Below are positions 3,795 to 20,138 of a stretch of 27,465 nt of DNA, piece by piece. Origin of the DNA: a virus (Duplodnaviria > Caudoviricetes); IMG/VR virus record IMGVR_UViG_3300035002_000023, positions 1-27,465 of that record; one strand, given 5' to 3'. How positions within the stretch are numbered: position 1 is the first letter of the stretch; every line of letters starts with the position of its first letter. Below the pieces are notes generated by a model, which was given only the letters and a program-made list of their open reading frames with translations, did no database searches and had not been told where the DNA came from. Both the position numbers and the translations under genes were made by a program.

Positions 3795-3833
3795 GAGACG
3801 GCTTCAGCTGGGCGCGACTCTTCGCTGACAACC

Positions 3834-3988: not shown

Positions 3989-4011
3989 CTCCCCACCAAC
4001 AGTTTCCGTCC

Positions 4012-4114: not shown

Positions 4115-4120
4115 CACGAG

Positions 4121-4885
4121 ATGAACGACACTGAAACGGTCGACGATACCGCCTTGTTCAATGCCACCGTCACGGGCGAGGCGCCCGTGGCCGAAGCAGA
4201 ACCGGTCGTCGCGCCGGCCGAACCGCGGCCCGAACCTGCCATTCCCCCGGCCCGGCTTCGTGAGGAAGCCGATGCAAGGCGGGCGGCGGAGCGGGATCGG
4301 GATGAGCTGAAGCATCGGCTCAGCCGGCTCGAGGCGCAGCTGCAGCCGCAGCACCAGGCGGCCCGGCCACCGGAATTCTGGGACAACCCGGATGAATGGG
4401 GCCGCTCGCTGGTGACCCCGATCCACGAGCAGCTGTTCCAGCAGCGGCAGGGCGTCTCCCGCCTCCTGGCGGAAGAAAAGCATGGGGCGGACAATGTGCG
4501 GGCGGCCTACAACGCGCTCGGGCAGGCCATGCAGGCCGACCCGGCGGTGCAGACCGATTACCTCCGCATCATGCGCTCGAACCACCCCTATGGCGAGCTC
4601 GTCGCCTGGCACAAGAAGCGCCAGGCGTTCGATGAGATCGGCAGCGACCCCGCTGCCTATCGCAACCGCGTGCTCGACGAGGCGATGCGGGACCCCGAAG
4701 TCCAGCAGCGTTTCCTCGCCCAGCTGCGTGGCGCCGCCCAGCCCAATATCGAGGCCCCCCGTCGTTCAGCCGTGCCGCACATCCCCTCGCTGCAAGGCAT
4801 CGGCACTGCCGCCGGCCCCGCATCCGCGGCCGGCGACCCCACCGATGCCGAGCTGTTCTCGGCAACCACCCGCCGGCGGCGCTGA
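4121..4885 (+). CDS. Capsid scaffolding protein
   Basis: Between portal and capsid; acidic/Pro-rich N-terminus, IPPARLREE followed by a coiled coil, low-complexity C-terminus ending in RRRR. Confidence 0.75.
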   Translation: MNDTETVDDTALFNATVTGEAPVAEAEPVVAPAEPRPEPAIPPARLREEADARRAAERDRDELKHRLSRLEAQLQPQHQAARPPEFWDNPDEWGRSLVTPIHEQLFQQRQGVSRLLAEEKHGADNVRAAYNALGQAMQADPAVQTDYLRIMRSNHPYGELVAWHKKRQAFDEIGSDPAAYRNRVLDEAMRDPEVQQRFLAQLRGAAQPNIEAPRRSAVPHIPSLQGIGTAAGPASAAGDPTDAELFSATTRRRR

Positions 4886-4923
4886 AGGCGCTGTAACCGG
4901 CTGAGCATCAGGACCATCAAGCA

Positions 4924-6126
4924 ATGGCTCTTTCTCCCAACCACCCCAATAATGAAGTGATCAAGTTCCGCCAGGATGTCGCCTACGACTTCCTGCGCTC
5001 GTCGCGCTTCGACGCCTATATGGGCGACGATTCCACCTCGGTGATCGTGCGCATGTCGGACCTCGAAGCCGACGGCAAGGAGATCCGCGTGCCGCTCGTC
5101 ACCCAGCTTTCGGGCGATGGCGTCGGCGCCGGCACCTTGCGCGGCAACGAAGAGCAGATCGACAGCTACGGCATGCCGCTCTGGGCCGACTGGGCCCGAA
5201 ACGCGGTGGCCAACAACCGGGCGCAGAACAAGGAATCTTCGTTCTCGGTGCGCTCGACGGCCCGGAGCCTCCTGCGTGGCTGGTCGAAGCGGATCGTCCG
5301 CGACGACCTGGTCGATGCGCTGCTGTCGATCCCCACCTCGGCAATGCAGGCCGGCCGCTTCGGCAATCCGGGCAACCGCGTCAACGGCATCAAGTGGTCG
5401 GCGGCCACCGCCGGCAACAAGAATGCCTGGGTCACCGCCAACCCCGACCGCGTGGTGTTCGGCTCGGCGCTCTCCAACTACTCGACCACCTTCGCGACCG
5501 CCGTGGGAAATGTCGACTCCGCCAACGACAAGATGTCTGCGGCGGTCGGGAGCCTGTTGAAGGACCAGGCCAAGCAGACCGGCGTCGACCCCAACAACCC
5601 CGGCGTCTACAACGGGCGGCCCAGGATCAACCCCTATATGGAGGCGGAGGGCGACCAGGAATGGTTCGTCTGCTTCCTCGGCGCCCGCGGTTTTCGCGAT
5701 CTGAAGGCCGATCCGGTGATGACCGCCGCGAACCGCGACGCCCGCAACCGCGAGAGCGGCGACCCGACCAAGACCAACCCGCTCTTTACCGGCGGCGCGC
5801 TGGTCTATGACGGGGTGATCTATGTCGAGATCCCCGAGATCACCCAGCGCCTGCTGCTGAAGGGCGCCGGCGCGGCGGGGATCGATGTCGAGCCGGTGTT
5901 CCTCTGCGGCCAGGGGGCGCTGGCCTACGCGCTCGGCCAGATGCCGCGCCCCACCACGCTCGAGGACGGCGACTACGACTTCGTCACCGGCATGGGCATC
6001 GAAGCCCAGTATGGGGTGGGCAAGATCGCCAAGGCCCCGCTGGCGGCGGGTGCCTCGGCGACCATCGGCAGCCTCGTCGACTGGGGCATGGTGACCGGGT
6101 TCGTCGCGGGGGTGGGTAACAGCTAA
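4924..6126 (+). CDS. Major capsid protein (DUF4043/N4-gp56-like)
   Basis: 400 aa after the scaffold; motifs GTLRGNEE, YDGVIYVE, FLCGQGALAYALG, EDGDYDFVTGMGI; strong GC3 codon bias. Confidence 0.88.
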   Translation: MALSPNHPNNEVIKFRQDVAYDFLRSSRFDAYMGDDSTSVIVRMSDLEADGKEIRVPLVTQLSGDGVGAGTLRGNEEQIDSYGMPLWADWARNAVANNRAQNKESSFSVRSTARSLLRGWSKRIVRDDLVDALLSIPTSAMQAGRFGNPGNRVNGIKWSAATAGNKNAWVTANPDRVVFGSALSNYSTTFATAVGNVDSANDKMSAAVGSLLKDQAKQTGVDPNNPGVYNGRPRINPYMEAEGDQEWFVCFLGARGFRDLKADPVMTAANRDARNRESGDPTKTNPLFTGGALVYDGVIYVEIPEITQRLLLKGAGAAGIDVEPVFLCGQGALAYALGQMPRPTTLEDGDYDFVTGMGIEAQYGVGKIAKAPLAAGASATIGSLVDWGMVTGFVAGVGNS

Positions 6127-7429: not shown

Positions 7430-7768
7430 ATGCCCAAAACCCGTCACGACCTCGTCAACCGCGCGTTGGCCGAACTCGGCGTCGTCGGCGCCGGGCAGAC
7501 CGCTGCCGCCGAGAATTTCGATGAGATCGACAAGGCCGTCGCCCCTGTCATGAGCGACCTCGCCACCCGCGACATCTGGGTGTGGGGCGACCCCGATGCC
7601 TATGACGACGATGCCTTCGACCACCTTGCGGTGCTCTTGGCCAATGCCCGGGCCCGCGCCTTCGGCCTGGCGCCCGACGAGCAGAAGCGGCTCCTCGCCG
7701 AACAGCGGCTGCGTGGCCTGAAGCCCACCATCCTCTCCGGCCGCACCCAGGAAATCGAGTATTTCTGA
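7430..7768 (+). CDS. Head-tail adaptor (P22 gp4 position), 112 aa
   Basis: AGGAG RBS, ATG 7430; N-terminus PKTRHDLVNRALAELGV typical of helical adaptors; ends IEYF with a TGATG overlap into a hub-gene start. Confidence 0.75.
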   Translation: MPKTRHDLVNRALAELGVVGAGQTAAAENFDEIDKAVAPVMSDLATRDIWVWGDPDAYDDDAFDHLAVLLANARARAFGLAPDEQKRLLAEQRLRGLKPTILSGRTQEIEYF

Positions 7769-7918
7769 TGCCCCCGATCCCCTGGCCTACCGGCCAGGGC
7801 GCCATGCTCGGTGCGCTGGGCGCCATTGCCGGCATCGCCGGCCGCGCTTTGCCGGCTTCGGCGGCAGCTCCGCCAACCCCACCACCCGCATGCCCGCAAA
7901 CTTCCAAGGACCCCGAAG
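7768..7918 (+). pseudogene. Deletion scar: first 9 codons of the hub gene fused to the 3' part of the gp7-like gene
   Basis: 7753-7794 matches 11985-12026 at 39/42 nt (MPPIPWPTG vs MPPISWPTG), then switches at CCGGC to match 14346 onward (QGAMLGALGAIAGIAGR vs QGAMLDALGTIVGIGGR). Confidence 0.85.
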
Positions 7919-8407
7919 ATGGCACTGAACTACCCCGGTTACGTCGTTCCGCAGCCCTCGCAGACCAAGCTCACCGATCTGCTCGACCTGTGGGACCAGG
8001 GCGTCACGCAAGGCAAAGCCGATCGCTACGAGCGCGAAGCGCCGCAGCAATTCGCGAACGCTGCAGCACCGCTGTCGCAGTTCGGACTGACGACGCCGCC
8101 CGATCAGTTGCGGGCGCTGTTCGCCAACCCCGAGACGCGTCCGTTCGCCGTGCAAATGGTGCAGGAAGCAACAGCGCGACGCGCTGCTGCCAACGATCCA
8201 CGGCTGCAGTTGCAGCTCGAGCAGTTGCGCGCCGAGTCGGCCAGATCGCCTCGACCCGGCGCTGCGGCAGCTTCCTACGCGCCAGTCCCTGCACCGCGCG
8301 AGGCGCGACCAACGCAAGCTGCACGGCTAAGCGTCGGCGCAATCGAAGGCGGCTACCGCTTTACCGGCGGCGATCCGTCCAACCCCGTCAATTGGGAGAA
8401 ACTCTAA
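7919..8407 (+). CDS. Short ejection/internal virion protein, module A (162 aa)
   Basis: ATG 7919 after AAGGA; first 91 aa 83/91 identical to 14557..14853; C-terminal GYRFTGGDPSNPVNWEK motif recalled from podovirus internal virion proteins; TAATG coupling to the next gene. Confidence 0.75.
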   Translation: MALNYPGYVVPQPSQTKLTDLLDLWDQGVTQGKADRYEREAPQQFANAAAPLSQFGLTTPPDQLRALFANPETRPFAVQMVQEATARRAAANDPRLQLQLEQLRAESARSPRPGAAAASYAPVPAPREARPTQAARLSVGAIEGGYRFTGGDPSNPVNWEKL

Positions 8408-10488
8408 TGGCTGGCCCTTGGGAGAACTACGGGCCCCACGTCGCAGAGCCCGCGGTGCCGCCGGTGGGACTGAAACCTGGCACGCAGGGCTATCTCGATT
8501 GGGCGATCGAACAGTCGAAGGCGGGCAGGAGCCTTCCGACGCTGTCACTAGAGGAGATGTTGCCTGAAAACGTAACACTCGTGCCAGGGTGGGAGACCCC
8601 GGGTGCCGGCGAACCGCTCAACGTTGGACCGGCGTCTATTCCGCCGGGCATCCCGGATATGATCCGCTCGCTCTATCCTTTCGAGCGGAACGTCAAGACC
8701 GGCGAGTATAGGCCAGCCGTGCCGAAGATAATCCCTGGAATGATCGAGGGGGCCGTTGACGCAGTTACGCTACCCCGTGACATAGCAGACGGGTACGGCG
8801 ATCTCGGCGCGCCTTATTCCTATTCGCCCGAGCTCGCAGCCCGCGTCTTCAACCTCGCAACGTTTGGGGTCACAGGCCCCATGCCGAAGCTCGGTCCCGG
8901 TCGGCTACCCCGGCTTGGTCAAGAGATTGCGACCAAGGAAGCCGAGAGCTTCGGTATCCCCCTGACATCCGGGCAAGCATCAGGCGACCTGAACCAGTTG
9001 CGGTCGGAGCAACTGCTGCGGCAATCCGACCATTCGCAGCCTCTGATGCGGACATTCGACGATCGCCAGGCTGATGCGATCGGCACCGCGACAGGCACAA
9101 TAGGCAAGGAGTTTGGTGGCTCGGCCGACGATCTGGCCAGCACGGTCACCACCGGCTTGCAGAACAAGACCAAGTTGGCGAAAGAAGGTGCCAATACCTT
9201 CTTTGACGTCGCCCAGGATGGCAAGCTTAAGGTTCGATCTGCCGCGGTGAAAGCGCTGCCGGGCTTCGTCAGGCAACGTCTCGCCGGCGTGGTGATGGAC
9301 GATAATCTGACACGCGCGGCTGTTATCGCGTTGAAGGAGGTCGACGATGCCAGCCTCGCTGCCGGCCGTCGCCCCCTGTCGTGGAAGGCGCTCGATGATG
9401 TCCGGAGGACGCTGGCCGGCCTCACGGGGACTGGCCCCGAGGACATCGCCGCCACTCGCACCGTGAAGCAGGCTTTCGACGACTGGCTGGACGACGCAGT
9501 CGACCAGCAACTGTTCAGCGGCGACGAGGCGGCGCTGGAGGCGCTCAAGGCCGCCAGGTCGGAGACACACCAGTATCAAAGCTTCACCAAACCGAAGGAG
9601 GGTGATGCCGCCGGGGCAACCATCGCCAAGATACAACAAGGCGACGCTACGGCCGAACAGGTCGCAAACTGGCTCTACGGCGCGGATGTCGTGTCACCGA
9701 GCCTCGCTGCGACCGACGTGGCCAGACGCCTGAAGGGGGTATTCGGGCCTTCGAGCGAGGAATGGAAAGCCATTCGCGCCGCGGCCTGGAACAAGCTGGT
9801 TCGTGACCCCGCGACCGGCGAAGCGAGAGCTCCGGCGGTACTAACGAAGCGCCTCGACGACTTCCTCGCGAACAAGGACTCTTCATTGGCGAGCACCCTG
9901 TTCAGCGAGGAGGAGCGCAACCGGATGAAGGCACTTTCGGCGGTGTTGAAACGAACAGTTCTGCCGCTGGAAGCGCGGAACCCTTCTCGCTCGTTTTTTG
10001 GGCTTGGCGATACGGTCAAAGATGTGGCGGCGTCCGTCATCAGCGGCGTCGTCGGAGCCAAGCTCGGGGGAGAGATACCAGGTATTGCGCCAGAGCTGCC
10101 GGGAATATTAGCCGCGGCAGCGGTGCCGATCTTTAGTAGGGTCACTCGCGAGGCGGAGGCACGAGCAGCGATCGCCAACAAACTGCCCCCCAAGTCGGTG
10201 TCGGACGCCCTGCTTTATGCCCCTAGCCTTGCAGCCAGAGTCGCTGCAATTACAGCTGAGCGCGAAAATGACATGGATCTTCGCGGACTCGCGCAGCAGA
10301 TGGTGCGAGACGTGGTGCAACCCCAGGTCGGCAACGATCTCACCAGGGCGCTAGGCTCTATCGGGGTAAGGTACGATCCGCGTGCCCCTTCGGAAGTTGA
10401 TCGCGCGATACGTCCTCAGCCGTTCCTTGCTCCTTGGATGCGCCTAACTCCGCCGGAACCTGATCCCTTGTTTCAGTTGCATGCTTGA
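8407..10488 (+). CDS. Large ejection/DNA-transfer protein, module A (693 aa; P22 gp16 position)
   Basis: Starts MAGPWENY at a TAATG overlap; GIPLTSGQASGD motif, helical Ala-rich body, hydrophobic Gly-rich C-terminal segment; distant paralog of 14971..16740. Confidence 0.75.
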   Translation: MAGPWENYGPHVAEPAVPPVGLKPGTQGYLDWAIEQSKAGRSLPTLSLEEMLPENVTLVPGWETPGAGEPLNVGPASIPPGIPDMIRSLYPFERNVKTGEYRPAVPKIIPGMIEGAVDAVTLPRDIADGYGDLGAPYSYSPELAARVFNLATFGVTGPMPKLGPGRLPRLGQEIATKEAESFGIPLTSGQASGDLNQLRSEQLLRQSDHSQPLMRTFDDRQADAIGTATGTIGKEFGGSADDLASTVTTGLQNKTKLAKEGANTFFDVAQDGKLKVRSAAVKALPGFVRQRLAGVVMDDNLTRAAVIALKEVDDASLAAGRRPLSWKALDDVRRTLAGLTGTGPEDIAATRTVKQAFDDWLDDAVDQQLFSGDEAALEALKAARSETHQYQSFTKPKEGDAAGATIAKIQQGDATAEQVANWLYGADVVSPSLAATDVARRLKGVFGPSSEEWKAIRAAAWNKLVRDPATGEARAPAVLTKRLDDFLANKDSSLASTLFSEEERNRMKALSAVLKRTVLPLEARNPSRSFFGLGDTVKDVAASVISGVVGAKLGGEIPGIAPELPGILAAAAVPIFSRVTREAEARAAIANKLPPKSVSDALLYAPSLAARVAAITAERENDMDLRGLAQQMVRDVVQPQVGNDLTRALGSIGVRYDPRAPSEVDRAIRPQPFLAPWMRLTPPEPDPLFQLHA

Positions 10489-10720
10489 TGCGGGTTCCGT
10501 CCAGGGCTTCGTGCAGGACGATCAGGGCGATACCAGGGGCCAGCACCAAGCCCCAGAAAACCCACAGCGAGACGGGTGGGAAGAATGACAGCACTCCTGC
10601 CGCCAGGAACGGGGCCAGGATGCCGAGCGGAACCGCGAGCTTCACCAGCCAACCCATGTCACGCAAGCGATAGGTGGCCTTACGGCGATACTGGTGTGGT
10701 TCAAGGTCTAGTTCCGGCAT
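10358..10720 (-). CDS. Small membrane protein, antisense (MPELDLEPHQY...)
   Basis: Two hydrophobic segments (LVKLAVPLGILAPFLAAGVLSFF; LWVFWGLVLAPGIALIVL); its 3' end overlaps the convergent ejection gene. Confidence 0.6.
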   Translation of the reverse strand: MPELDLEPHQYRRKATYRLRDMGWLVKLAVPLGILAPFLAAGVLSFFPPVSLWVFWGLVLAPGIALIVLHEALDGTRIKHATETRDQVPAELGASKEQGTAEDVSRDQLPKGHADRTLPR

Positions 10721-10879
10721 CAGAGAACCCCGAATAAGCGAACGAAACACTAGACGAATATGGCCAACGGAATGGAACCCTTTATCACACCCATCAGATT
10801 GCAGTGACACGCACTGAACCTGCCCGCTCGTGCGCGTCGCCAAGGCACTCCAGCGGCCAGGCATTACCATGGATGCCCG

Positions 10880-11089
10880 TCATAAGGTGATGCGAGGGCG
10901 CCGGGCGAATACGAACCCAATGATCACGCCGGTAACGGTAAAGAACCCTGCCGCTGTCCAGTTGTAGCCCGTGGCCTCCAAGCCCCTGTAAAACCCAACA
11001 GCGCAAATCACGACGCCAAAAGCGGCCACGATCAACGGTATCTGGTCGCGTCTTTGAGACTCGTTCGGCTTTTGTTCCAAATTGGACAT
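10880..11089 (-). CDS. Small two-TM membrane protein, antisense (69 aa)
   Basis: MSNLEQKPNESQRRDQ, then IPLIVAAFGVVICAVGFY and WTAAGFFTVTGVIIGFVF, with a basic C-terminal tail. Confidence 0.6.
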   Translation of the reverse strand: MSNLEQKPNESQRRDQIPLIVAAFGVVICAVGFYRGLEATGYNWTAAGFFTVTGVIIGFVFARRPRITL

Positions 11090-11270
11090 CGCAACTGCCA
11101 AGCTTGATTGCCACTACGGCCACCTTATCACAGATATCGCCGCATCACCGGTCGTACAAGCGATCCGCCAATGCCATTGGGCCGTAACGGCCGAGCCGGC
11201 TCATCGGGGACAGCGTTCCGGCTCTCAATCCGCTGATGACCCGTCCCCGGCATCAGCTGCCCCCTGGCGA

Positions 11271-11438
11271 CTAACCGCGAAAGAACAAACTCAGCGCAAA
11301 CAGGATCAGACGCAAGGCCGAGGTAAGCACGACCGCAATGGCAAGGCCGACGACCAACCCGACTGCGACACTCATTGCGAGCGGATCGGTGATCCCGACC
11401 CATTCGAACAACGCCTGAATCCACTCCTCGACCTTCAA
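11271..11438 (-). CDS. TDPLA membrane peptide, copy 1 (55 aa)
   Basis: GGGAG RBS, TTG start; KVEEWIQALFEWVGITDPLAMSVAVGLVVG...; paralogs at 11530 and 18770. Confidence 0.7.
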   Translation of the reverse strand: MKVEEWIQALFEWVGITDPLAMSVAVGLVVGLAIAVVLTSALRLILFALSLFFRG

Positions 11439-11529
11439 CTCAAAGCTCCCGTCGCTCCTGCGCAGGACGATAGGGCTGCGCCTTTTGGGCTGCAACGCCT
11501 CCCTCGCTCCAGTGAGCTAGTCGCTGAAC

Positions 11530-11703
11530 CTAGCGGCGAAAGCCGACCGCGGAGCTAACGACGAACAGAATCAGGCGCACGACCACAGTGAGCACCATCG
11601 CCAAGGCGACGCCGACCACGACCCCGACTCCGACACTTACGGCGAGCGGATCGGTGATCCCGATCCATGCGAACACGGCCTGAATCCACTCCTGTACCTT
11701 CAA
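11530..11703 (-). CDS. TDPLA membrane peptide, copy 2 (57 aa)
   Basis: GGGAG RBS, TTG start; KVQEWIQAVFAWIGITDPLAVSVGVGVVVG... Confidence 0.7.
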   Translation of the reverse strand: MKVQEWIQAVFAWIGITDPLAVSVGVGVVVGVALAMVLTVVVRLILFVVSSAVGFRR

Positions 11704-11777
11704 CTGTGCGAGCTCCCATCGCTGCTGCCTCGCGACGATATGGCGGCGCCCTCCGCGCGGCAATGCTCCTGCCAGCC

Positions 11778-11952
11778 CCATCCCCTCCCGCGGGAGAGTC
11801 CCCCCAGGCAGCCATCTGGTCCGGCTTGCACGTGCCGAATTTCGGCATCGGCGATAGCTCGCATCGCTATGACACCCCACCTCGGCGCTGTGGGCGACCA
11901 ATGTCGACGGCACGCTGAGCGCGGCACGCGACCAGTGGTTCTCGCCGATGCG
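11778..11952 (+). pseudogene. Decayed copy of the 5' end of tail-fibre gene 19143
   Basis: Aligns with 19117-19292 (GCAGCCATCTGG...AATTTCGGCATCGGCGA...GCTGAGCG...GCCGATGCG); start codon lost (CCCAGGCA vs CCCATGGCA); indels present. Confidence 0.85.
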
Positions 11953-12000
11953 GCCGACATCTCTCCGGCAACTTACTCAACACCAATCGAGTATTTCTGA
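11953..12000 (+). pseudogene. Remnant of the adaptor-gene 3' end (duplication junction)
   Basis: CTCTCCGGC...AATCGAGTATTTCTGA matches the end of 7430..7768 (IEYF-stop). Confidence 0.75.
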
Positions 12001-13418
12001 TGCCCCCGATCAGTTGGCCTACCGGCACTGCGCCGGGCGTGAACCCCACCGAAACCGGCGGCCGGCTGATCAATGCCATCGCCGAGCGGGCCCCCGCGGG
12101 CTCGCGCAGCGAGATCGTCTGGCGCCGCGTCGCCGGGCTGATCGCCCGCTTCACCACCACGCAGACCGCCATTCGCGGCGCGCTGCTGGTGGGCTCGGTG
12201 CTCTATGTCGTCTCCGGCAACCGGGTCTATTCGATCACCTCGAGCTATCTGGTGACCGAGCTCACCGGCACGGTGGGCGGCAGCGGCCCCGTCACCATGG
12301 CGCGCAACATGAAGGCGCCGGTGCCGGACGTGCTGATTGTCCACTCCGGCGGCATGTCGCAGATCAACATCTCCGGCGCCTCTGTCGCCGTGTTCAGCGA
12401 TGGCGACCTGCCCTCGGTCAATTCGATCTGTTGGATCGATGGCTACTTCGTCGTCACCGCCGAGAACGGGCTCGCCTACCAGTCGGGGCTCAACGACACG
12501 ACGTTCGCCTCGGTCGACCGCACCACCGCCGAGGCCGACCCCGACGGGCTCTATCGCGCCATCGCCTCGGGCAGCGACCTGATCCTGATGGGCACCGCTT
12601 CGCTCGAATTCTACGCCAATGCCGGCAACCCTACCGGCTTCGCCTTCAACCGCTCGGTGGTGGTGCCGATCGGGCTCAAGGCTCCCTATGCCGTCGCCGG
12701 GTTCGAGCCGGGCTTTGCCGATACGGTGATCTTCGTCGCCAACGACAACACGGTTCGCCGGCTGCAGGGCTATGACCCCACGCCGATTTCCGGGCCCGAC
12801 CTCAACCGGCTGATCGAGGCGGTGAGCAACCCCGCCGAGCTCGCCGCCTGGGTCTACCAGGCGGCCGGCCACGCCTATTGGGTGCTGAGCGGGCCGGGCT
12901 GGACCTGGGTCTACGACGTCTCGACCGGCAGCTGGCATGAGCGCCAGAGTTATGGGTTCCCCGATTGGCGCTGCCGCTATGGCGTTGCCGCCTGGAGCAA
13001 GTGGTTCACCTTCGACCTCGAGAGCGGCAAGGCGTTCGAGCTGAGCTCGGCGGCGCGACGCGATGGAGCGAACCCGCTGGTCTGGACGCTGCGCTCCAAC
13101 CAGGCGCACCGCTTCCCCGGCCGCGCCGTGATCCACAAAGCCAGCTTCGATTTCGAAACCGGCATCGGCATCGACGCCGGCATCTCGCCGATCGAAACCG
13201 AACCGGTGGTGCGGATCCGCTGGTCCGACGATGGCGGCCGCAACTGGGGGAACCCCTTGACCCGTAGGCTCGGCACCCAAGGCGAAGACGTGCCCATCGA
13301 CATCAACAATGCCGGGCTCACCGGCCGCAAGGGCCGGATCTGGGAGATGAGCATCTCCGACCCGATCGAGATCGCGTTTTTCGGCGGCGCCATGGATATC
13401 GAGGAGCGCGCCGCATGA
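12000..13418 (+). CDS. Tail hub / packaged-DNA stabilization protein (P22 gp10-like)
   Basis: 472 aa, beta-rich; motifs IDGYFV, TWVYDVSTGSWHER, IRWSDDGGRNW, RIWEMSISDP characteristic of this family; syntenic position. Confidence 0.88.
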   Translation: MPPISWPTGTAPGVNPTETGGRLINAIAERAPAGSRSEIVWRRVAGLIARFTTTQTAIRGALLVGSVLYVVSGNRVYSITSSYLVTELTGTVGGSGPVTMARNMKAPVPDVLIVHSGGMSQINISGASVAVFSDGDLPSVNSICWIDGYFVVTAENGLAYQSGLNDTTFASVDRTTAEADPDGLYRAIASGSDLILMGTASLEFYANAGNPTGFAFNRSVVVPIGLKAPYAVAGFEPGFADTVIFVANDNTVRRLQGYDPTPISGPDLNRLIEAVSNPAELAAWVYQAAGHAYWVLSGPGWTWVYDVSTGSWHERQSYGFPDWRCRYGVAAWSKWFTFDLESGKAFELSSAARRDGANPLVWTLRSNQAHRFPGRAVIHKASFDFETGIGIDAGISPIETEPVVRIRWSDDGGRNWGNPLTRRLGTQGEDVPIDINNAGLTGRKGRIWEMSISDPIEIAFFGGAMDIEERAA

Positions 13419-13792
13419 GCACGCCGGATAGCCTCAGGCCGATCCCGCATCCGAGCGCCCGGCTGGTCGAGGCCGACGGGGCGATTGCCAAACCCTGGTA
13501 CGACTGGCTGAACCAACTGGCGGGAAAACTTGCCGAGCTGACCCCGCTCGAAGCCAGCGCCACCTACGATCCCCCGCTGCTCGCCGATGGCGCCGGTGCC
13601 ACCACCGACGTGACGGTGCCTGGAGCGGCGCTGGGCGATTTCGCCACCGCGGCATTCTCGCTGGCCACGGCAGGCATCGTCATCACCGCCTGGGTGAGCG
13701 CCCCGAACACCGTTTCCGTCCGCTTCCAGAACGAAACCGGCACGCCGCTCGATTGTGGCAGCGGCAAGCTGACCGCCCGCGTTTACAGATAG
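13415..13792 (+). CDS. Tail needle-position protein (125 aa)
   Basis: ATGA overlap with the hub; N-terminal PWYDWL helix followed by a beta-sandwich (ATYDPPLLADG...VPGAALGDF...AWVSAPNTVSVRFQN) of a type seen at tail-protein C-termini. Confidence 0.65.
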   Translation: MSTPDSLRPIPHPSARLVEADGAIAKPWYDWLNQLAGKLAELTPLEASATYDPPLLADGAGATTDVTVPGAALGDFATAAFSLATAGIVITAWVSAPNTVSVRFQNETGTPLDCGSGKLTARVYR

Positions 13793-13801
13793 GAGCCTCA
13801 A

Positions 13802-14521
13802 ATGGCTGACATTTTCGAAACCATCGGCGACTGGCTGGGCCTCAACAAGGGCAAGGCCACGCAGAAGGCCGCCGAGCAGAACCGCGGCCTCATCGACCAG
13901 CTGGGCAAGACCGGCCGGCCGATCATCGAGGGGATCCAGGGGGTCACCGGCGATTACCTCGATCTCGGCAAGCTCGGCGCCGACCGCTATGCCGATGCCA
14001 TGGGGCTCAACGGCCCCGACGGCTACGCCCGGGCCGAAGCGGCGTTCCGCGCCGGGCCGGGCTACCAGTTCGCGCTCGACCAGGGGCTCGACGCGGTGGC
14101 CCGCAAGGGTTCGGCCATGGGCCGGCTCGATAGCGGCAATACCGATCTCGACCTCATGCGCTACGCCACCGGCTATGCCGACCAGGCCTGGGGCAACTGG
14201 ATGAACGGGCTCTCGGGCTACAACAACATGTACGGCGCCGGCGTTGACAAAGACGTCGCCGCCCGCGGCGGCAGCCTCGATTTCGAGAGCGGGCTTTCCT
14301 CCGCCTATATGGGCGCCAACAACCAGGTCGCCGCCGGCAAGGAAGCCGGCCAGGGCGCCATGCTCGATGCGCTCGGAACCATAGTCGGCATCGGCGGCCG
14401 GATAGCCGGCGGCGGCGCCTTCGGCGGCTATGGCGGCTTCGGGGGTGCGCAGGCGCCGCTCAACTATGGCGCTCCGCAATATACCGGCCAGCTCCGCCCC
14501 GGCTACCAGGCCGGCGTGTGA
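13802..14521 (+). CDS. Ejection protein, P22 gp7-like (239 aa)
   Basis: Gly/Ala-rich with a PGYQFALDQG motif and hydrophobic Gly-rich C-terminal segment; AGGAG RBS; syntenic position. Confidence 0.8.
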   Translation: MADIFETIGDWLGLNKGKATQKAAEQNRGLIDQLGKTGRPIIEGIQGVTGDYLDLGKLGADRYADAMGLNGPDGYARAEAAFRAGPGYQFALDQGLDAVARKGSAMGRLDSGNTDLDLMRYATGYADQAWGNWMNGLSGYNNMYGAGVDKDVAARGGSLDFESGLSSAYMGANNQVAAGKEAGQGAMLDALGTIVGIGGRIAGGGAFGGYGGFGGAQAPLNYGAPQYTGQLRPGYQAGV

Positions 14522-14556
14522 CCGGCTGTCCGCAACCTTCCGAGGAGGCCTGAAAC

Positions 14557-14853
14557 ATGGCGCTGACCTACCCCACCTACGTCGTCCCGCAACCCTCGCA
14601 GACCAAGCTCACCGACCTGCTCGACCTGTGGGACCGGGGCGTCGCGCAAGGCAAAGCCGACCGCTATGAGCGCGAGGCGCCGCAGCAATTCGCGAGCGCT
14701 GCAGCACCACTGTCGCAGTTCGGCCTGACGACGCCGCCCGATCAGTTACGCGCGCTGTTCGCTAACCCGGAGACGCGGCCGTTCGCCCTGCATATGGTGC
14801 AGGAGGCATCCGCCCGGCGCGCGGCTGCTGGCTATCAGCCGCAGCGACAGTGA
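14557..14853 (+). CDS. Short ejection/internal virion protein, module B (98 aa)
   Basis: GAGGAGG RBS; paralog of 7919..8407 over 91 aa, ending 7 aa later. Confidence 0.7.
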   Translation: MALTYPTYVVPQPSQTKLTDLLDLWDRGVAQGKADRYEREAPQQFASAAAPLSQFGLTTPPDQLRALFANPETRPFALHMVQEASARRAAAGYQPQRQ

Positions 14854-14970
14854 TCGCAGTCCGGCACGCGGGGACCTTCAGACAGAGTCACCCACTCCAT
14901 CGGCGCGTATTGCGCCAACGCTGGCGCGGCCGCCCGCTTTCTCCTCCACAACCATTAGCTACAAGGTGCA

Positions 14971-16740
14971 ATGATGGCTTGGGTACCGTTTGATCCGATG
15001 CAGCCCCCGACCCCTGTCACTGAGGATCCGCTGCTCGCGATCTATTTGGCGAGGACGCAGGGTGCCAACCCCAACCGCCCCGAGACCTATGGCGAGAGTC
15101 ATTTTGCGCAGAACATGTCCGGGCTTAACGAGGGTATCGGGTACTTGCTTGGAGGCCCGGTCGATCTCACTGCGGCTCTGCTGAACCTGGGTATCGGGGG
15201 TCTGAATATGGCGTTCCCGCCCGAACAAACGCTTGCCGACCAGATTGCAGGCAAGCACGTGGAGCCACGCTTCAAGCCGATCGTAGACCCGGTAGGCGGC
15301 TCGCAGATGATCAACCGCTTCATGGCCGATGTTGGCGCGATCACGCCAGAAACTAACGACCCCGGTAAGCAGTTCGGGCGTCGTGTCTTTCAGGAAGTCG
15401 GCGCCTCGCTCATCCCGACGATGGGTACGATGAGTCGCGCGGCACGCCCCCTTGCTGCTGCTGCCAAGGAATTTACCCTTGCGGGCGGTGCGGGCATTGG
15501 CGCCGCTACTGCGGATCAGTTAGCCCCGGACAATCCTTGGGCAGAGTTCATAGGGCAAATACTGGGAACTGTCTCCGCGCATGGCGCCACCAAGCTTGGC
15601 AGTAAGCTCATCACCCCATTTCCAGTTCAAGACCCTGCCCGGCTCGGCGCAATGGAAATGCTGCAACGCGAAGGTATCGACCTTTCCGCGGGGCAGCAAA
15701 CCGGGCACGTTGGGCTACAGAACATCGAAGGCGATTTGGCCGGTGCCGAGCTTGTCCGGCTCAGCAACAAGCAGATGGAGCAGTTCACCCAAGCCGTACT
15801 CAAGCGGATCGGCATTGGTGCCAACCGCGCGACCAAAGACGTGCTGAGTGCTGGTAATGAGCGCCTGGGTGCCGCATTTGGCGACATCGGCTCGCGCAAT
15901 GACATCCAGCTGGCAGACGGGAAACTCGGCAACGACCTACGCAAAAGCTACTATGGCTATGCCAAGAGTACCGCCGAAGCCAATCGCCTCCCGGCGATCG
16001 AGGACTTCATCGTCGAGGCCACCATGGCGATGAAACCGAAAGGTGGAGTCGACGTGCTCGATGGCAATGTCTACGCCAGCCTCAGGACCCGTGTTGGCCA
16101 GCTGGCCCGTGAGACGGCCGACCCAAAGCAAAACTCCGTGCTCATGGACATCCAGCGCGCCCTAGATGACGCAATGGAACGCAGTCTGTCCAAGGGGGAC
16201 GTTGACGCATTTCGGTGGGCTCGCGCCGCGGATCGCGACTTCACGATCATTCAGAAGGCGGCATTGCAAGACCCGTCCGGGCTAATCTCACCTACCGCGT
16301 TACAAAGTGCCGCAGTGGCCGGACAGGGCGATCTCGCAAAGCTCGCGGACAGCGGCACGATGTTGATGACACCACCGTCACCGGCCGGCTTAGCGCCCGG
16401 CACGCGGCAGCTACTCTCAGCGGGGCCAACCATCGCCGGCAGTTACATTGGCAACCAGATCGGCGACGTGAATGGGGCTGCGGTCGGAGCAGCGCTGGCG
16501 GGAGCTGCCGGTCCCTACGCTGCTGGTAGCGCAATCCTGTCGAATCCGGGGAGACGGTACCTGGCTAACCAAGTGCTCAATGGGCCACCATCGGGGTCTA
16601 ACGGCTTCGGACCGCTTGGCGCAATGCTCGCGGGGCAGACCGGCGAGATCAGCCCGTCGCGCGACCCGCTGGCGGAGTTGGGCGAGATAGTGGCCATTGG
16701 TCAGAGTGCCATTGGCGGCAAAAACTGGGGAGGGCTGTGA
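14971..16740 (+). CDS. Large ejection/DNA-transfer protein, module B (589 aa)
   Basis: GIDLSAGQQTG motif, YASLRTRVG, ALDDAMERS, C-terminal PYAAGSAILSNPGRRYLANQ; Gly/Ala-rich hydrophobic stretches; gp16 position. Confidence 0.78.
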   Translation: MMAWVPFDPMQPPTPVTEDPLLAIYLARTQGANPNRPETYGESHFAQNMSGLNEGIGYLLGGPVDLTAALLNLGIGGLNMAFPPEQTLADQIAGKHVEPRFKPIVDPVGGSQMINRFMADVGAITPETNDPGKQFGRRVFQEVGASLIPTMGTMSRAARPLAAAAKEFTLAGGAGIGAATADQLAPDNPWAEFIGQILGTVSAHGATKLGSKLITPFPVQDPARLGAMEMLQREGIDLSAGQQTGHVGLQNIEGDLAGAELVRLSNKQMEQFTQAVLKRIGIGANRATKDVLSAGNERLGAAFGDIGSRNDIQLADGKLGNDLRKSYYGYAKSTAEANRLPAIEDFIVEATMAMKPKGGVDVLDGNVYASLRTRVGQLARETADPKQNSVLMDIQRALDDAMERSLSKGDVDAFRWARAADRDFTIIQKAALQDPSGLISPTALQSAAVAGQGDLAKLADSGTMLMTPPSPAGLAPGTRQLLSAGPTIAGSYIGNQIGDVNGAAVGAALAGAAGPYAAGSAILSNPGRRYLANQVLNGPPSGSNGFGPLGAMLAGQTGEISPSRDPLAELGEIVAIGQSAIGGKNWGGL

Positions 16741-16842
16741 GCGACGGACCTCCTTGTTGCCGGGGATGGAGTTAGGGCAGCACGGGTCGCGCCAAACAAG
16801 AAGTACGCCATCACCCGCTTACCGAGCGCAACAGCACTCTAG

Positions 16843-16995
16843 TCAAAAGAACTTTATGTCAGGAAACCACAACTTGAAAGCTATGAAGACAAGCAAGGTA
16901 ACCATCATCGATGTACACCAGTAGATGCCCTGAAGTGTTGCCTGTATGCGGGCAAGCAAATCTGCAGATCTCTTTTGTTCATCCAATTCCGACAT
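16843..16995 (-). CDS. Small single-TM protein, antisense (50 aa)
   Basis: GGAGG RBS; MSELDEQKRSADLLARIQATLQGIYWCTSMMVTLLVFIAFKLWF... Confidence 0.6.
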   Translation of the reverse strand: MSELDEQKRSADLLARIQATLQGIYWCTSMMVTLLVFIAFKLWFPDIKFF

Positions 16996-17465
16996 CCCCC
17001 AACACCTCCAGCACTGGTTCACGGCCATCGCCGGCTACGCAAGCCAGCGTCTTGATCTGATTTCGAAGGTCGACGTGACACTGCTCACGGGCCGCCATCT
17101 CTTCGTTGTTGCGCTGCCTGTTCGTGTCGGACGATTCCATGCTCATCCCCTCATGACTTCGGCGCTACGTTAGGTCTGGGTCCTCGGGGCAGCAATAGCC
17201 CATCGACCGCCGCGGCTCGCATAAACGAGGCCGCAGTGGAACCCTGCGAAACTGCGAATGAGACGCGGGCCTGTCCGTGAGCCCCTTGCGCGCCGCCGCC
17301 AACGCTCCGCGTGCAAGTCACCTCACCCAACGGGGGAATCCGCTGCTCCCGCCATATGTCAACGATGGATTTTGCATTGACAGAGACCGCCGGAGCGCGT
17401 GCGGCCCACGATCACGTCCGACTTGCCTGGCGTCCTCATATCCCTTCGGCAATGTTGTCCAGTTT

Positions 17466-17861
17466 TCAGAGTACTGTGAAGAACCGGACAGCGCAGGCAA
17501 TGAGCACCACCACTGCTACCAGCGTCTTGAGTAAATCAAGCATCACTTCGCGAAACTCCTTCTCCTCACGCGGGCGCTCCTCCCTCAATGACTCGATGAA
17601 TTTCTCCTTATGATGCGGATCAATTAGGCTCCGCACCGCGAGCCTCGTCTTAGCCACCTCCTCCCGCAACTCGCGAATCTGAAAATCGTGACTGGTCCAT
17701 GCCACAATGATCATCGCGTACAGCACACCGGCGAGTGAGACGATCAGCACCTCGGTGCGGTTGGTCAACCGCCAGAGCACATACAAGGCGATACCAAGCG
17801 GTACTAAACTGATCGCGATCGCCCACAGATACGAGACCGCCAGGCTCAGCAAACGCCACAT
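17466..17861 (-). CDS. Three-TM membrane protein, antisense (131 aa)
   Basis: GGAGGAGAGAAGG RBS before ATG 17861; two N-terminal TMs, a charged helical linker and a C-terminal TM. Confidence 0.72.
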   Translation of the reverse strand: MWRLLSLAVSYLWAIAISLVPLGIALYVLWRLTNRTEVLIVSLAGVLYAMIIVAWTSHDFQIRELREEVAKTRLAVRSLIDPHHKEKFIESLREERPREEKEFREVMLDLLKTLVAVVVLIACAVRFFTVL

Positions 17862-18017
17862 AAACCTTCTCTCCTCCGAGTATTGGGGCAACGTAGTGGC
17901 GGAAATGATCATTGGGAAGCAGGCGCCCATCCCGAGCGCTGGCGAGATCAGCAACGGCGTGAACAAACGGCGCCTGCCGCGGAAGAACAGCTTTGGGAAG
18001 TTCAGAGTGCCCCACCC

Positions 18018-18236
18018 GTGAAGCGCTTTTTCCTCACTGACGCGGACAAGGCCGCCATGACCGCCGTTCCCGGCGTCGCCGCCGTAACCCAGAATCGTCC
18101 CGACCTCGGACTGGCAGCCTGGCTATCGCGCAACGGCCACGCTGATCTTGCTGCCCAGCTTGCGGCCGGCAAGTTGACCCCGCGCGCAGCATATGAAGCG
18201 TCACGGCAGCGACCAGCCGCGAATTGGCCCTTTTGA
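18018..18236 (+). pseudogene. Probable orphan fragment of an internal virion protein
   Basis: AAWLSRNGHADLAAQLAAGKLTPRAAY resembles, from recall, a motif of alphaproteobacterial podovirus ejection proteins; no clear RBS. Confidence 0.35.
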
Positions 18237-18264
18237 CGGGCTTGCCCATTGGCAAGAGGGCCGC

Positions 18265-18417
18265 TCACCCCAATGGCCTACCGCCGAATAGAGAAAAAAG
18301 CGGCGCGAAACGCATAAAGCACAGCACGAATATGATCAGTGACGTCAGCGCCGCTATCACATACTTCCACTGACCATGAAAGCTCTTCTTGGCAGAATTG
18401 GCTGGGTTGGCCGGCAC
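18265..18417 (-). CDS. Small single-TM protein, antisense (about 50 aa; start uncertain)
   Basis: KKSFHGQWKYVIAALTSLIIFVLCFMRFAPLFSLF hydrophobic segment; convergent with 18018..18236 across a hairpin at 18226-18262. Confidence 0.45.
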   Translation of the reverse strand: MPANPANSAKKSFHGQWKYVIAALTSLIIFVLCFMRFAPLFSLFGGRPLG

Positions 18418-18769
18418 GGTCGAACTAATGGCCACCAAGCCGGGGCCAATCGAGATCGAGGTGCGAGGCGGCAATCCAAACCTGGTCTGGGACCCCAACG
18501 ACGTGTTTATCATGCCCGACGGCACGCGTATCTGACCACCAGTCGATGTGCTTGAGGCTCAGCGTAGCATTGCACCTGCGATGAAGCCCAAAACAGAACG
18601 ATCGCGGCGAATACCTCCCACATGAGCAGACCGCCGCGTTCGATCCCAGCATGAACCGCTCATGCTGCATTCCCCGCGCCAACTCTCCACGGCTCCGTAT
18701 GAAGGGCGCGCCTCCGGCCGAACAAGCAAGATCGCGGGCAACGGCCGCCGCGACGGCGGCAATCAGTCG

Positions 18770-18940
18770 TTAGCGCGGATAAATGAAGATTGCGAACAAG
18801 ATCTGTACAACGCGCACAACAAACACAAACACGCTCAAGAGGCCCGCAGCGGCAATCACCCCCAGCGCCACGCTCATGGCTAGCGGATCGGTGACCCCGA
18901 TCAATCGCAGGGCGCCGAAAAGCCACTCCTGGAACTCCAA
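18770..18940 (-). CDS. TDPLA membrane peptide, copy 3 (56 aa)
   Basis: TTG start with the same CGATGGG...CGCACAG leader as copy 2; EFQEWLFGALRLIGVTDPLAMSVALGVIAA... Confidence 0.7.
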   Translation of the reverse strand: MEFQEWLFGALRLIGVTDPLAMSVALGVIAAAGLLSVFVFVVRVVQILFAIFIYPR

Positions 18941-19142
18941 CTGTGCGCCCCCATCGTTGCCCTTTACGCCCCGACGATGGGGCTGGGTCCTCGCGGCGGC
19001 AAGCACCCTCTTGCCCCCCACTCCCGTCCCAGCAGCGCGAACCACTACCCACTCAGCGCCTTGCGTGCGACCAGCTGAATTCCCTGCGCATTCAATGCGT
19101 GGGGGCTGAGACGCGTCCATCCCCTCCCCCGGAGACTTCCCC

Positions 19143-20138
19143 ATGGCAGCCATCTGGCCCGGCTCGCGCGTGCCCAATTTCGGCATCGGCGACCGTCTCT
19201 CTTTCTACGATACCGCCACCTCGACGCCGCAGGTGGTCTATGCCGATGGCGCGCTGAGCGTGGCGCATGATCAGCCGATCCGTGCCGATGCGCGCGGCAT
19301 GTTCCCGGTGATCTACCTGAGCCCGGCGCCGGGCAGCTATCGCCAGAAACTCACCGACGCCAACGGCGTCTTGATCTTCGACGACGACGATATCGACGTG
19401 CCGCAATCGGCCGATTACGAGCCGCCCGACCCCGGCGTCACCGACCCGACGCTGCTGGTCAGCACCGGCATGCGCATCGGCTATTATGGCACCGCGGCGC
19501 CGGCCGGCTGGGTGCGCTGCAACGGCCGCAGCCTCGGCTCGGCCGCCTCGGGCGCCAGCGAGCGCGCCAATGCCGATTGCCAGGCGCTGTTCCTCCACCT
19601 GTGGACGGCCGACGCGACGCTCACCGTCAGCGGCGGCCGCGGCGCTTCGGCGGCGGGCGACTGGGCCGCCAACAAGACCATCACCCTGCCCGACTACCGC
19701 GACCGCATCGCCATCGGGCTCGGCGCCATGGGCAATACCGATGCCAACCGCATCCCCGATACGCTGATCGATGGCGGGGAGAACAACACCACGCTCGGCG
19801 CCACGGTGGGCGCGGCGACCCACACGCTCACCGCCGGCCAGATGCCGGCGCACCTGCACGCCAAGGGCACGCTGAAAATGCCCAACCACGGGCACCCTAC
19901 CCGGATGAACCCGGCCGCCAATGTCGACAGCGACACCTATGGCGGCATCGTGGTGCGCGGCCTCAGCGGCCCGCAGAACAAGGTGGCCTGGACCGGCGCG
20001 CCCGAGGATCTGCTGGGCCGGCAGGTGGGCGGCTCGGGCGCCATGGATCTCGATGGCGACATGGCCAATGCCGGTAGTGGCGAGGCGCACCCCAACATCC
20101 AGCCCTCGACCTATGAACTCGTGATCATCAAACTCTGA
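19143..20138 (+). CDS. Tail fibre with virion-attachment N-domain and tail-collar domain
   Basis: N-terminal FYDTATSTPQVVYAD...PIRADARG; collar motif APAGWVRCNG...LPDYRDR; HxH motifs and C-terminal HPNIQP...IIKL. Confidence 0.85.
   Translation: MAAIWPGSRVPNFGIGDRLSFYDTATSTPQVVYADGALSVAHDQPIRADARGMFPVIYLSPAPGSYRQKLTDANGVLIFDDDDIDVPQSADYEPPDPGVTDPTLLVSTGMRIGYYGTAAPAGWVRCNGRSLGSAASGASERANADCQALFLHLWTADATLTVSGGRGASAAGDWAANKTITLPDYRDRIAIGLGAMGNTDANRIPDTLIDGGENNTTLGATVGAATHTLTAGQMPAHLHAKGTLKMPNHGHPTRMNPAANVDSDTYGGIVVRGLSGPQNKVAWTGAPEDLLGRQVGGSGAMDLDGDMANAGSGEAHPNIQPSTYELVIIKL

Follow-up and report, generated by a model that had tools for sequence, protein, structure and literature searches.

Polymorphic toxin loci of the CDI, Rhs and MafB classes carry orphan CT-immunity modules, and in pore-forming colicins and CDI/Rhs orphans a variable protein is paired with a cognate small gene and accompanied by stacks of orphan remnants. 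Domesticated phage particles are described in the literature as GTAs and as tail-only tailocins (PMC9662315, PMC13195805), and transfer by BaGTA requires comEC in the recipient (PMC5496983). Among phages, P22 ejects its DNA with the products of the 7-20-16 gene set, beside which lies sieA. The two types of P22 SieA, A and B, are 24% identical and have the same target range (PMC10883804); real SieA is thus broad rather than allele-specific.

Here, we analysed a window of 27,465 nucleotides from a viral sequence record that belongs to a Devosia lineage. Its virion genes follow the P22 order of hub, needle-like gene, gp7, gp20, gp16, membrane gene in the antisense slot and fibre, with gp16-like proteins and with the high allele diversity at gp16/gp20 that P22 also shows (PMC10883804, PMC8954989). 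The ejection genes, however, are present in two cassettes, module A upstream and module B downstream.

Results

Self-BLAST recovered repeated pieces within and beside modules A and B, so the duplicated layout proposed in the initial annotation is real (Table 1). The gp7-like 3' part at 7790-7844 matched 14346-14400 (87%), the gp20-like 5' part at 7891-8190 matched 14527-14828 (87%, E 2e-103), and an antisense membrane gene at 11633-11790 matched 18870-19026 (72%). Adaptor and fibre remnants do lie between the modules and the fibre start of copy A has decayed as described; the adaptor remnant, however, is only ~15 nt long (11985-11999) and does not cover 11953-12000. The hub and gp7 genes said to be lost from copy A have indeed decayed but not totally, as nine hub codons (7768-7794) persist and are joined through a shared CCGGC to what is left of the gp7 3' end. 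This remnant matches the end of gp7 in relatives ('NPTTRMPASF') and is indel-ridden across loci. The two ejection ORFs of copy A are open, as reported, and overlap at TAATG. A 906-aa ORF from 7768 was rejected as an accidental open frame preceding gp16 A that is absent from other loci.

Table 1 Features of the window. Positions refer to the window; approximate ends are marked ~.
Feature	Position	Strand	Evidence or remark
Head genes: terminase large subunit (1-1572), P22-like portal (1842-3794), scaffold-like gene (4121-4885) and major capsid protein (4924-6126)	1..6126	+	scaffold-like label by position only
Head-tail adaptor-like gene, full length	7430..7768	+	phrog_29314 (unknown function); label by synteny
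Repeat r1: adaptor 3' end and 9-codon hub 5' remnant	7753..7794	+	39/42 identical (93%) to 11985-12026
Upstream slot: degraded gp7-like 3' remnant with ribosome-binding site	7790..7918	+	within left homology arm
Mini gp20-like gene, module A (162 aa)	7919..8407	+	90% match to its module B counterpart (92 aa aligned)
gp16-like ejection protein of module A (allele A, 693 aa)	8407..10488	+	nearest named ESM cluster PF26808 Phage_P22_gp16
Two-helix membrane gene cognate to allele A (120 aa)	10358..10720	-	family 2; overlaps gp16 3' end
Three further antisense membrane genes, module A	10880-11089, 11271-11495, 11530-~11760	-	families 9, 1, 1
Decayed collar/fibre 5' remnant	11778..11968	+	right homology arm; 75% to 19117-19308, indels and frameshifts
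Repeat r2: adaptor 3' remnant and true hub start	11985..12026	+	self-BLAST match to r1
Tail hub	12000-13418	+	phrog_578 head closure Hc3
Needle-like gene	13415-13792	+	label by synteny only
gp7-like ejection gene	13802-14521	+	phrog_598 DNA ejection
Mini gp20-like gene, module B (98 aa)	14557..14853	+	without C-terminal tail; uncoupled from next gene
gp16-like ejection protein of module B (allele B, 589 aa)	14971..16740	+	phrog_26400 DNA ejection protein, E 4e-14
Antisense membrane array, module B	16843-16995, 17466-17966, 18265-~18400, 18770-~19100	-	families 8, 0, 0, 1
Orphan C-terminal remnant of third gp16 allele (type F)	18000..18236	+	97% to L004 downstream gp16 end
Collar/fibre gene, full length	19143..20138	+	phrog_8763 tail protein; PF07484 weak

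A chimeric assembly is ruled out by spanning contigs from three other studies and by the same layout in loci L002, L004 and L006. In run X4, a single contig extends over 7338-19500 and shows 77 differences; contigs of X2 and X8 cover 7338-14496 and 7321-12596. Among these near-identical strains, differences are clustered in tracts at 12096-12800 and from 14509 onward, gp16 B carries a 1-nt deletion at codon 188, and module A has at least one substitution among the differences listed.

The head module matched PF03237, PF16510, PF13252, phrog_156 and phrog_334. A P22-type portal, an Hc3 hub and the gp7-gp20-gp16 order preceding the fibre identify the cluster as P22-like, and the presence and conservation of capsid, portal and terminase distinguish it from a tail-only tailocin. 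dN/dS was 0.06-0.27 across the head module and 0.10-0.17 for the adaptor-like gene. A conserved promoter-like block precedes the small terminase; no LexA or CtrA box was found there. An Rfam search gave no match, a promoter/terminator scan of 7100-19200 stayed at chance level, and RNA runs X18-X20 gave scattered low-depth contigs indistinguishable from DNA.

The initial annotation held that the two large proteins share only short motifs. BLASTP of A against B gave no match, but profile-profile comparison aligned 197 columns (87.6%, E 3.5e-6), and ESM clusters pointed to gp16 for both: PF26808 (Phage_P22_gp16) was found on 63% of members for allele A (score 0.93), and allele B scored 0.96 to PF26808 clusters. 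By these sequence comparisons, both large proteins are gp16-like and homologous to each other. Predicted structures are of modest confidence (pLDDT 60 for A and 68 for the all-helical B); the B model retrieved only generic helical bundles (best Z 10.2 over 90 residues), Foldseek gave no match to the A model at E 0.001, and a sequence search for a relative of solved structure found none. Scans of the gp16 alleles found no toxin or enzyme domain and gave no support to the suggested toxin delivery; a novel pore-forming activity would be compatible with this result. Nor did anything point to the suggested host-range switching, because fibre genes are present in single copy.

Turnover across loci involves at least seven gp16 alleles, and it is the whole protein that varies among them. 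Alleles A, B, C, D and E-like occur in both slots; allele A, for example, matches downstream-slot copies in relatives at 59-84%. The window is A|B, and its sister locus L001 has C only. Two gp16 matches in L069 proved to be one split gene and not two cassettes. Upstream-only pairs of type D gave dN/dS of 0.22 at dS 0.16 and 0.20 at dS 0.15, and a neutral 693-codon frame remained free of stops in about 5% of simulated runs at 0.05 substitutions per site.

The gp20-like genes, whose identity rests on position and on similarity to syntenic phage genes, are 98-162 aa long in every clade copy examined, compared with a median of 446 aa in phage-like loci. The module A copy corresponds to residues 1-46 plus about 241-290 of phage genes of 520-634 aa, followed by a short allele-specific tail. 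Because both copies in the window are so short, neither module is likely to build a full DNA tunnel, and two complete alternative channels, as the initial annotation envisaged, are unlikely because neither module encodes a full-length gp20. The deletions are in frame and mostly retain coupling to gp16. Loss of the transglycosylase domain was ruled out as a mark of domestication, as the 380-aa gp20 of phage-like L068 also lacks it; what sets the clade's gp20 apart is solely the missing long C-terminal half. The gp20 tree separates upstream from downstream slots weakly (61/73), and a MALTYPE start occurs in 5/7 upstream copies and 5/6 single loci but in 0/11 downstream copies of two-cassette loci.

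Copy A has its own antisense membrane genes, as first described: four at 10358..11760, of which the last two are paralogs; gene starts are uncertain from 10880 to 11760 and throughout the module B array (16843..19100). Loci carry 2-9 such genes. Their place between gene 16 and the fibre is that of sieA and helices are predicted, although the proteins (50-220 aa) had no Pfam or PHROG match to SieA or any exclusion protein. In phage loci, an antisense membrane gene stands directly behind gp16 in just 17 of 52 (at a stricter cut-off). Across the related loci, the first antisense gene family was shared by 22 of 32 same-type gp16 pairs versus 24 of 268 different-type pairs, these pairs not being independent of each other. 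The type F remnant directly precedes its cognate membrane gene, and the cognate family comes next after 15 of 21 orphan gp16 tails; conversely, membrane genes persist without their gp16 for family 2 in 5/9 loci, family 3 in 5/7 and family 0 in 6/13. Cognate downstream partners with orphan modules are also a feature of polymorphic toxin loci, a likeness seen here as genetic linkage only. On balance, these counts favour an allele-specific pairing of gp16 with membrane proteins, and such coupling would fit the Sie-evasion idea of the initial annotation; physical linkage could be enough to produce it as well (in the allele A pair, the two genes share 130 nt).

Counting cassettes in orthologous clusters revealed that the two-cassette layout is not a one-off: among 18 distinct related Devosia loci, 12 have two cassettes joined at the same junctions, and the r2 junction recurs in all of these. 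The clade root has two-cassette loci on either side, and their grouping as a single clade was rejected (p-AU 1.5e-80). The same junctions across loci imply a single old duplication, and we conclude with high confidence that one old tandem duplication was followed by nested losses that left the single-cassette loci. The upstream cassette was lost at least three times and is therefore dispensable. It had been proposed that a second cassette arose by tandem duplication or capture from a relative and was selectively kept. Tandem duplication, maintenance by purifying selection in relatives and a polymorphic locus are supported, whereas recent capture into an ordinary prophage gives way to the old duplication in a host-fixed, virion-only cluster with slots refilled repeatedly. 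Of 243 family genomes searched, only 7 contained the element (hub identity at least 81%), one of them (G004) in a long-gp20 form. Lesions are common among relatives: split hubs (L006, L045), a split capsid (G134), an IS in the upstream gp20 of L004, frameshifted gp16 (L004, L015), a truncated upstream gp16 (L007) and loss of upstream gp20 (L002, L010, L014, L018); some may be sequencing errors.

Four genomes (G001, G002, G003 and G134) share the upstream host DNA, and the flanking genes are of host type. Searches for a tyrosine integrase found none on the contigs that carry the element in G001-G003 and none within 700 kb of it in G134, and none of the four has the adjacent integrase, repressor and replication genes of an active temperate prophage; G232 of the same family, by contrast, holds a full related prophage. 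Element dS (0.12-0.84, mostly 0.2-0.45) resembles that of flanking host genes (0.35-0.62), and dN/dS is 0.06-0.15 for terminase, portal and capsid. A fixed site, vertical descent and purifying selection on structural genes are those of a grounded prophage, and the locus is probably a domesticated P22-like virion cluster of the Devosia lineage rather than an active prophage; dN/dS below 1 may in part be older than the capture.

Discussion

We tentatively favour, at a little under even confidence, a domesticated P22-like cluster with two slots that makes a DNA-filled, GTA-like particle, with gp16 alleles blocked SieA-style by cognate membrane proteins; GTA-like output, taken by itself, is possible but doubtful. 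A single old tandem duplication created the upstream slot; the second copies of the hub, gp7 and fibre ends then degenerated, while the cassette genes remained open, with purifying selection acting on them, and sister strains now differ in their alleles. Cassettes could then be swapped by homologous recombination, with the gp7 3'/gp20 5' stretch as left arm and either the membrane-gene array or the fibre 5' remnant as right arm. Replacement would often leave in place the tail of the previous gp16 together with its membrane gene, so that orphan arrays build up, and recombination between the 42-bp repeats could delete the upstream slot. Both cassettes would lie on a late transcript of the cluster, and particles would be loaded with gp16 of both types. 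The short gp20 would retain its loading and coupling ends and be unable to span the periplasm, so DNA would be freed there and require host uptake as in BaGTA. In the inner membrane, each membrane protein would stop its cognate gp16, and a cell would therefore exclude particles and phages of the types for which it holds locks; a second gp16 key would give a producer access to more kinds of cells.

An extended version, in which a podophage became a host-owned particle with an allele-specific key-and-lock, two co-packaged gp16 keys, a growing inner-membrane lock ring and recombination moving keys from the upstream to the downstream slot, is somewhat unlikely as a whole. If true, the key-and-lock would decide which neighbours receive DNA or die, a self/non-self system made from ejection and exclusion genes, and would provide a natural panel of matched gp16/exclusion pairs.

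The convergent cognate membrane gene behind each allele, the orphan tail-plus-gene stacks, the number of membrane genes (2-9 per locus) and the loss of most of the gp20 tunnel would also suit a podophage-derived killing particle, with gp16 as a membrane-damaging agent delivered into non-kin and the antisense membrane proteins as immunity, kept in orphan arrays. The layout matches that of pore-forming colicins and CDI/Rhs orphans, and a fixed locus with exchanged specificity cassettes recalls carotovoricin (PMC13195805). We nevertheless consider killing unlikely: in P22, K+ efflux does not occur when gp7 and gp16 are released in the absence of gp20 (PMC10883804), the alleles scanned have no toxin domain and a maximal hydropathy of only 1.1-1.5, and terminase, portal and capsid are conserved beyond the needs of a tail-only weapon. 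The position and function of sieA (PMC10883804), orphan membrane genes that outlast their gp16 (families 2, 3 and 0) and related full prophages in the family (G232) are what would be expected if selection acted on superinfection exclusion by the membrane arrays, perhaps with short gp20 and foreign gp16 poisoning related podophage virions, and with little transfer or killing. Such an anti-phage module seems fairly improbable, as it leaves unexplained why the head, tail and lysis genes as a whole are under purifying selection and why the promoter-like block before the small terminase is conserved.

Frequent lesions, repeated loss of the upstream slot (at least three times), a patchy range and nested scars of old alleles could all reflect slow decay of a grounded prophage after a chance duplication, with low dN/dS inherited from phage donors and short gp20 as mere deletions. 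This is quite improbable given in-place divergence at dN/dS of 0.06-0.15 in head genes and about 0.2 in upstream gp16, gp20 deletions that are in frame and mostly gp16-coupled beside remnants full of indels, and the rarity with which a neutral frame as long as gp16 A stays open. Closest to the initial annotation is a helper-dependent or recently mobile element whose genes still spread together and whose two ejection sets serve to dodge exclusion. Complete packaging and lysis genes and two open gp16 genes speak for it, yet it is very improbable in view of the shared chromosomal site in four genomes, the lack of a nearby integrase, host-like divergence and the absence of two gp16 cassettes from all 57 phage-like loci.

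In strains that are cultured and non-pathogenic (Root413D1, DS-56), the locus provides five or more matched pairs of gp16 and membrane protein. These make two P22 questions testable, namely what causes ejection-gene diversity and how SieA-like proteins recognise ejection proteins, and the natural mini-gp20 shows which parts of gp20 are retained once the tunnel is lost. In the open-licence PMC and bioRxiv literature, we found no description of a short-tailed particle whose two ejection cassettes recombine and whose locus stockpiles partner membrane genes.

Compared with P22, the Devosia cluster has two cassettes and no early genes, a gp20 of 98-162 aa rather than the 431-471 aa of Sf6 and P22 (PMC10883804, PMC8954989), and arrays of up to nine membrane genes with orphan gp16 tails; these genes track gp16 type and have no detected similarity to SieA. 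As in CDI, Rhs and MafB loci and pore-forming colicins, a variable protein is followed by a cognate small gene and by stacked C-terminal remnants; here, however, the exchange involves gp16 in its entirety instead of a toxin tip attached to a constant carrier, scans revealed no toxin domain, and the remnants may persist solely through overlap with the partner gene. GTAs, above all BaGTA, likewise are vertically inherited, virion-only clusters of Hyphomicrobiales with packaging genes under purifying selection (PMC9662315, PMC5496983). Two Sulfitobacter phages that PMC9662315 places within the BaGTA TerL clade were absent from our 6 capsid matches and the best 15 of 613 TerL matches. The Devosia cluster differs from GTAs in its narrow range (one lineage), in lacking a recognised replication origin or activator and in its twin polymorphic ejection cassettes, which the cited GTA passages do not describe. 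Carotovoricin and other tailocins share with it a domesticated phage structure at a fixed locus and a specificity cassette exchanged between species by homologous recombination (PMC13195805), but the Devosia cluster keeps capsid, terminase and a short tail, and varies its ejected proteins and their membrane partners instead of tail fibres.

Two ejection cassettes in one virion gene cluster

The 27,465-bp window, an entire virus-labelled record, spans genes from the large terminase to the lysis genes. Self-BLAST bore out the duplicated adaptor and fibre pieces named in the initial annotation, with small corrections. Contigs from three other studies cross the junctions, and one runs from 7338 to 19500, which rules out a chimeric assembly.

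Features of the window and of related loci
Feature	Location	Strand	Remark
P22-type portal	window		Pfam/PHROG
Capsid, PF13252	window		Pfam/PHROG
Hc3 hub	window 12000-13418		Pfam/PHROG
gp7-like gene, 'DNA ejection'	window		Pfam/PHROG
Module B large gene, 'DNA ejection protein'	window 14971-16740		Pfam/PHROG
Collar/fibre gene	window 19143-20138		Pfam/PHROG
Orphan gp16 remnant	window 18000-18236		type F; the window's only one
REP-like palindromic repeats	window 1610-1800, 3834-3988, 6276-6323, 7252-7352		between structural genes
Second fibre-like gene	window 20482-22071	+	three internal ~100-nt repeats
Two antisense genes	window 22738-26062	-	between fibres and lysin
Conserved non-coding block before small terminase	L003:1340-1560	+	same block in L011, L026, L027, L041
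236-aa ORF between gp16 and fibre	L005:12697-13407	+	Devosia sp. ZB163

Hub searches recovered 6 genome loci (all titled Devosia or Devosiaceae), 16 viral loci and 16 metagenome loci; collapsing identical hubs and leaving the partial L051 out of the count gave 18 distinct short-gp20 loci. Two cassettes are present in 12 of these (window, L002, L004, L006, L007, L010, L012, L014, L015, L018, L042, L044) and one in 6 (L001, L003, L011, L038, L041, L045), and the more distant long-gp20 loci (L005, L016, L020, L021, G232) carry one each. The right junction is common to all two-cassette loci, as is the left junction where it survives, so the two-cassette layout goes back to one duplication. When L006 and L045, whose hubs are split, were excluded and the other 16 of the 18 loci were placed in trees with two outgroups, two-cassette loci fell on both sides of the root, a single-clade grouping was rejected, and single-cassette loci required three changes. 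No second cassette was found within about 8 kb in 57 phage-like control loci from gp16 profile searches (0/57).

BLASTP revealed no significant match between the large, gp16-like proteins of modules A and B. Profile-profile comparison (32 and 17 sequences) gave an alignment of 197 columns with 87.6% probability, and language-model comparison linked protein B to clusters carrying PF26808 Phage_P22_gp16 (score 0.96) and protein A to a cluster with this family on 63% of its members (score 0.93). Both predicted structures are almost wholly helical, and no toxin or enzyme domains were found in A, B or the other gp16 alleles scanned.

gp16 alleles turn over in both slots

gp16 alleles fall into types A, B, C, C2, D, E (with E1 and E2) and F, with between-type identity mostly <45%. 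Type A, upstream in the window, is downstream in L002, L003, L012, L014 and L044; type B, downstream in the window and L018, is upstream in L002, L010 and L014; types C, D and E-like occur in either slot. The window's nearest relative, L001, carries type C alone. By these distributions, both slots turn over. A derived MALTYPE start marks 5/7 upstream copies, 5/6 single loci and, where two cassettes are present, 0/11 downstream copies; this pattern suggests that sequence moved from the upstream slot into the downstream one, with weak tree support.

By the Nei-Gojobori method, upstream-only comparisons yielded dN/dS values of 0.22 (at dS 0.16) and 0.20 (at dS 0.15) for type D and 0.10-0.25 for the 5′ part of gp20. 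At these shallow divergences, upstream cassette genes show purifying selection, whereas indels abound in the adjacent remnants. Strains sharing about 99.4% identity with the window show clustered differences in the hub and the start of module B gp20, with one substitution in module A among the differences listed. In contigs of three studies, codon 188 of type B gp16 has a 1-nt deletion, which would leave these strains with the upstream gp16 as their sole intact copy.

Membrane genes track gp16 type

Each gp16 is followed by antisense genes that encode small membrane proteins (2-9 per locus, 8 in the window). Across 25 cassettes, the family of the first such gene is common to 22/32 same-type and 24/268 different-type pairs, a level of sharing reached in 0/10,000 permutations, although these pairs are related and linked and hence not independent. 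Of 21 orphan C-terminal remnants of gp16 in the arrays, 15 are followed by the cognate family, and cognate families often outlast their gp16. The long-gp20 locus L021 combines an A-like gp16 tail and an A-type membrane gene with a different gp16 middle. Under a stricter hydropathy cut-off, an antisense membrane gene directly follows gp16 in 17/52 phage-like loci. An N-terminal MPDL(D/E)LxP motif recurs in several of the small membrane proteins, both of phages and of the element (antisense genes behind gp16 in L005, L016, L020 and L021), and may point to a broader, unnamed family that occupies the sieA position.

Shortened gp20

Among 19 clade gp20 copies examined, one is IS-interrupted; the 18 complete copies are 98-162 aa long. 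Relative to the phage proteins of 520-634 aa, the short form retains residues 1-46 and about 241-290, to which is added a short tail that tracks gp16 type. The first part missing is a transglycosylase-like domain, also absent from the phage-like L068 protein (380 aa); loss of the C-terminal half is special to this clade. Across 57 phage-like loci, the median length of the gene preceding gp16 is 446 aa. The periplasmic tube of P22 is believed to consist of gp20 (471 aa; PMC10883804, PMC8954989); because clade gp20 is far shorter, neither module is likely to make a full conduit.

A fixed, apparently domesticated element

Loci and flanks of relatives indicate that the element is domesticated. In genome loci G001, G002, G003 and G134 the cluster is preceded by shared host DNA, extending over about 6 kb in G001-G003 and present as blocks of 1 to 3.4 kb in G134; 5.9 kb downstream is common to G002 and G134, and 28 flanking ORFs scanned belong to host-type families or to none. 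No tyrosine integrase lies near the element: in G001-G003 the matches are on contigs other than its own, and in G134, a single contig, the distance exceeds 700 kb. Unlike these fixed-site loci, G232 carries integrase and repressor genes and is a full prophage. Of 243 family genomes, 9 match the hub (7 of them with at least 81% identity), and G002 was the sole short-gp20 match among 401 genomes sampled from the order. Terminase, portal and capsid have Nei-Gojobori dN/dS values of 0.06-0.15; those of the hub are 0.08-0.22, and those of needle, gp7, fibre and lysin 0.13-0.40. Element dS is close to that of three flanking host genes. The window's REP-like repeats, abundant elsewhere in the sequencing runs compared, fit long chromosomal residence.

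A promoter-like block, TTGCAC-N17-TAGYTT, preceded by a palindrome (CACAG-N11/12-CCTGTG), is conserved before the short small-terminase gene in five loci, at a position upstream of the window's start. The block also includes a 130-nt leader that folds, with little covariation and no Rfam match. This block is likely the cluster's control region. The small-terminase-like gene of G001, G002 and G003 is short (96-107 aa), lies about 280 nt before terL and may have lost pac specificity in the manner expected of a GTA.

The antisense genes between fibres and lysin encode a 256-aa glycosyltransferase-like ORF with no family match and a 760-aa fusion of Kelch and GT4 glycosyltransferase; relatives carry different glycosyltransferase-like genes there, possibly for surface modification. 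The C-terminal half of the second fibre-like gene varies among relatives. In the long-gp20 cluster of Devosia sp. ZB163, downstream flanks differ, and the 236-aa ORF shows no relation to the ejection genes and looks glycosyltransferase-like on visual inspection.

Proposed function and relation to known systems

Duplication, flank decay, cassette selection, allele turnover, genetic coupling and a fixed site characterize this element. The initial annotation proposed that a captured second cassette was selectively kept and may give particles alternative payloads or channels; its layout stands, and its interpretation, supported in part, is reframed here. We hypothesize that the element specifies a host-owned, DNA-filled particle, probably GTA-like, carrying two gp16 alleles as keys, for which allele-biased membrane proteins would be the locks. 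According to PMC10883804, sieA occupies the same position, acts at the inner membrane and is escaped through gp16/gp20 changes. The same source weighs against the two-key particle in describing real SieA types as broad in range and in reporting that P22 gp7 and gp16 without gp20 give neither DNA injection nor K+ release. Frequent lesions also count against it, and expression of the cluster is a prediction.

Neither the element nor twin ejection cassettes were found described in the literature outside subscription journals. The domesticated phage particle is itself of a known kind, as in the gene transfer agent BaGTA, whose DNA requires comEC (PMC5496983).
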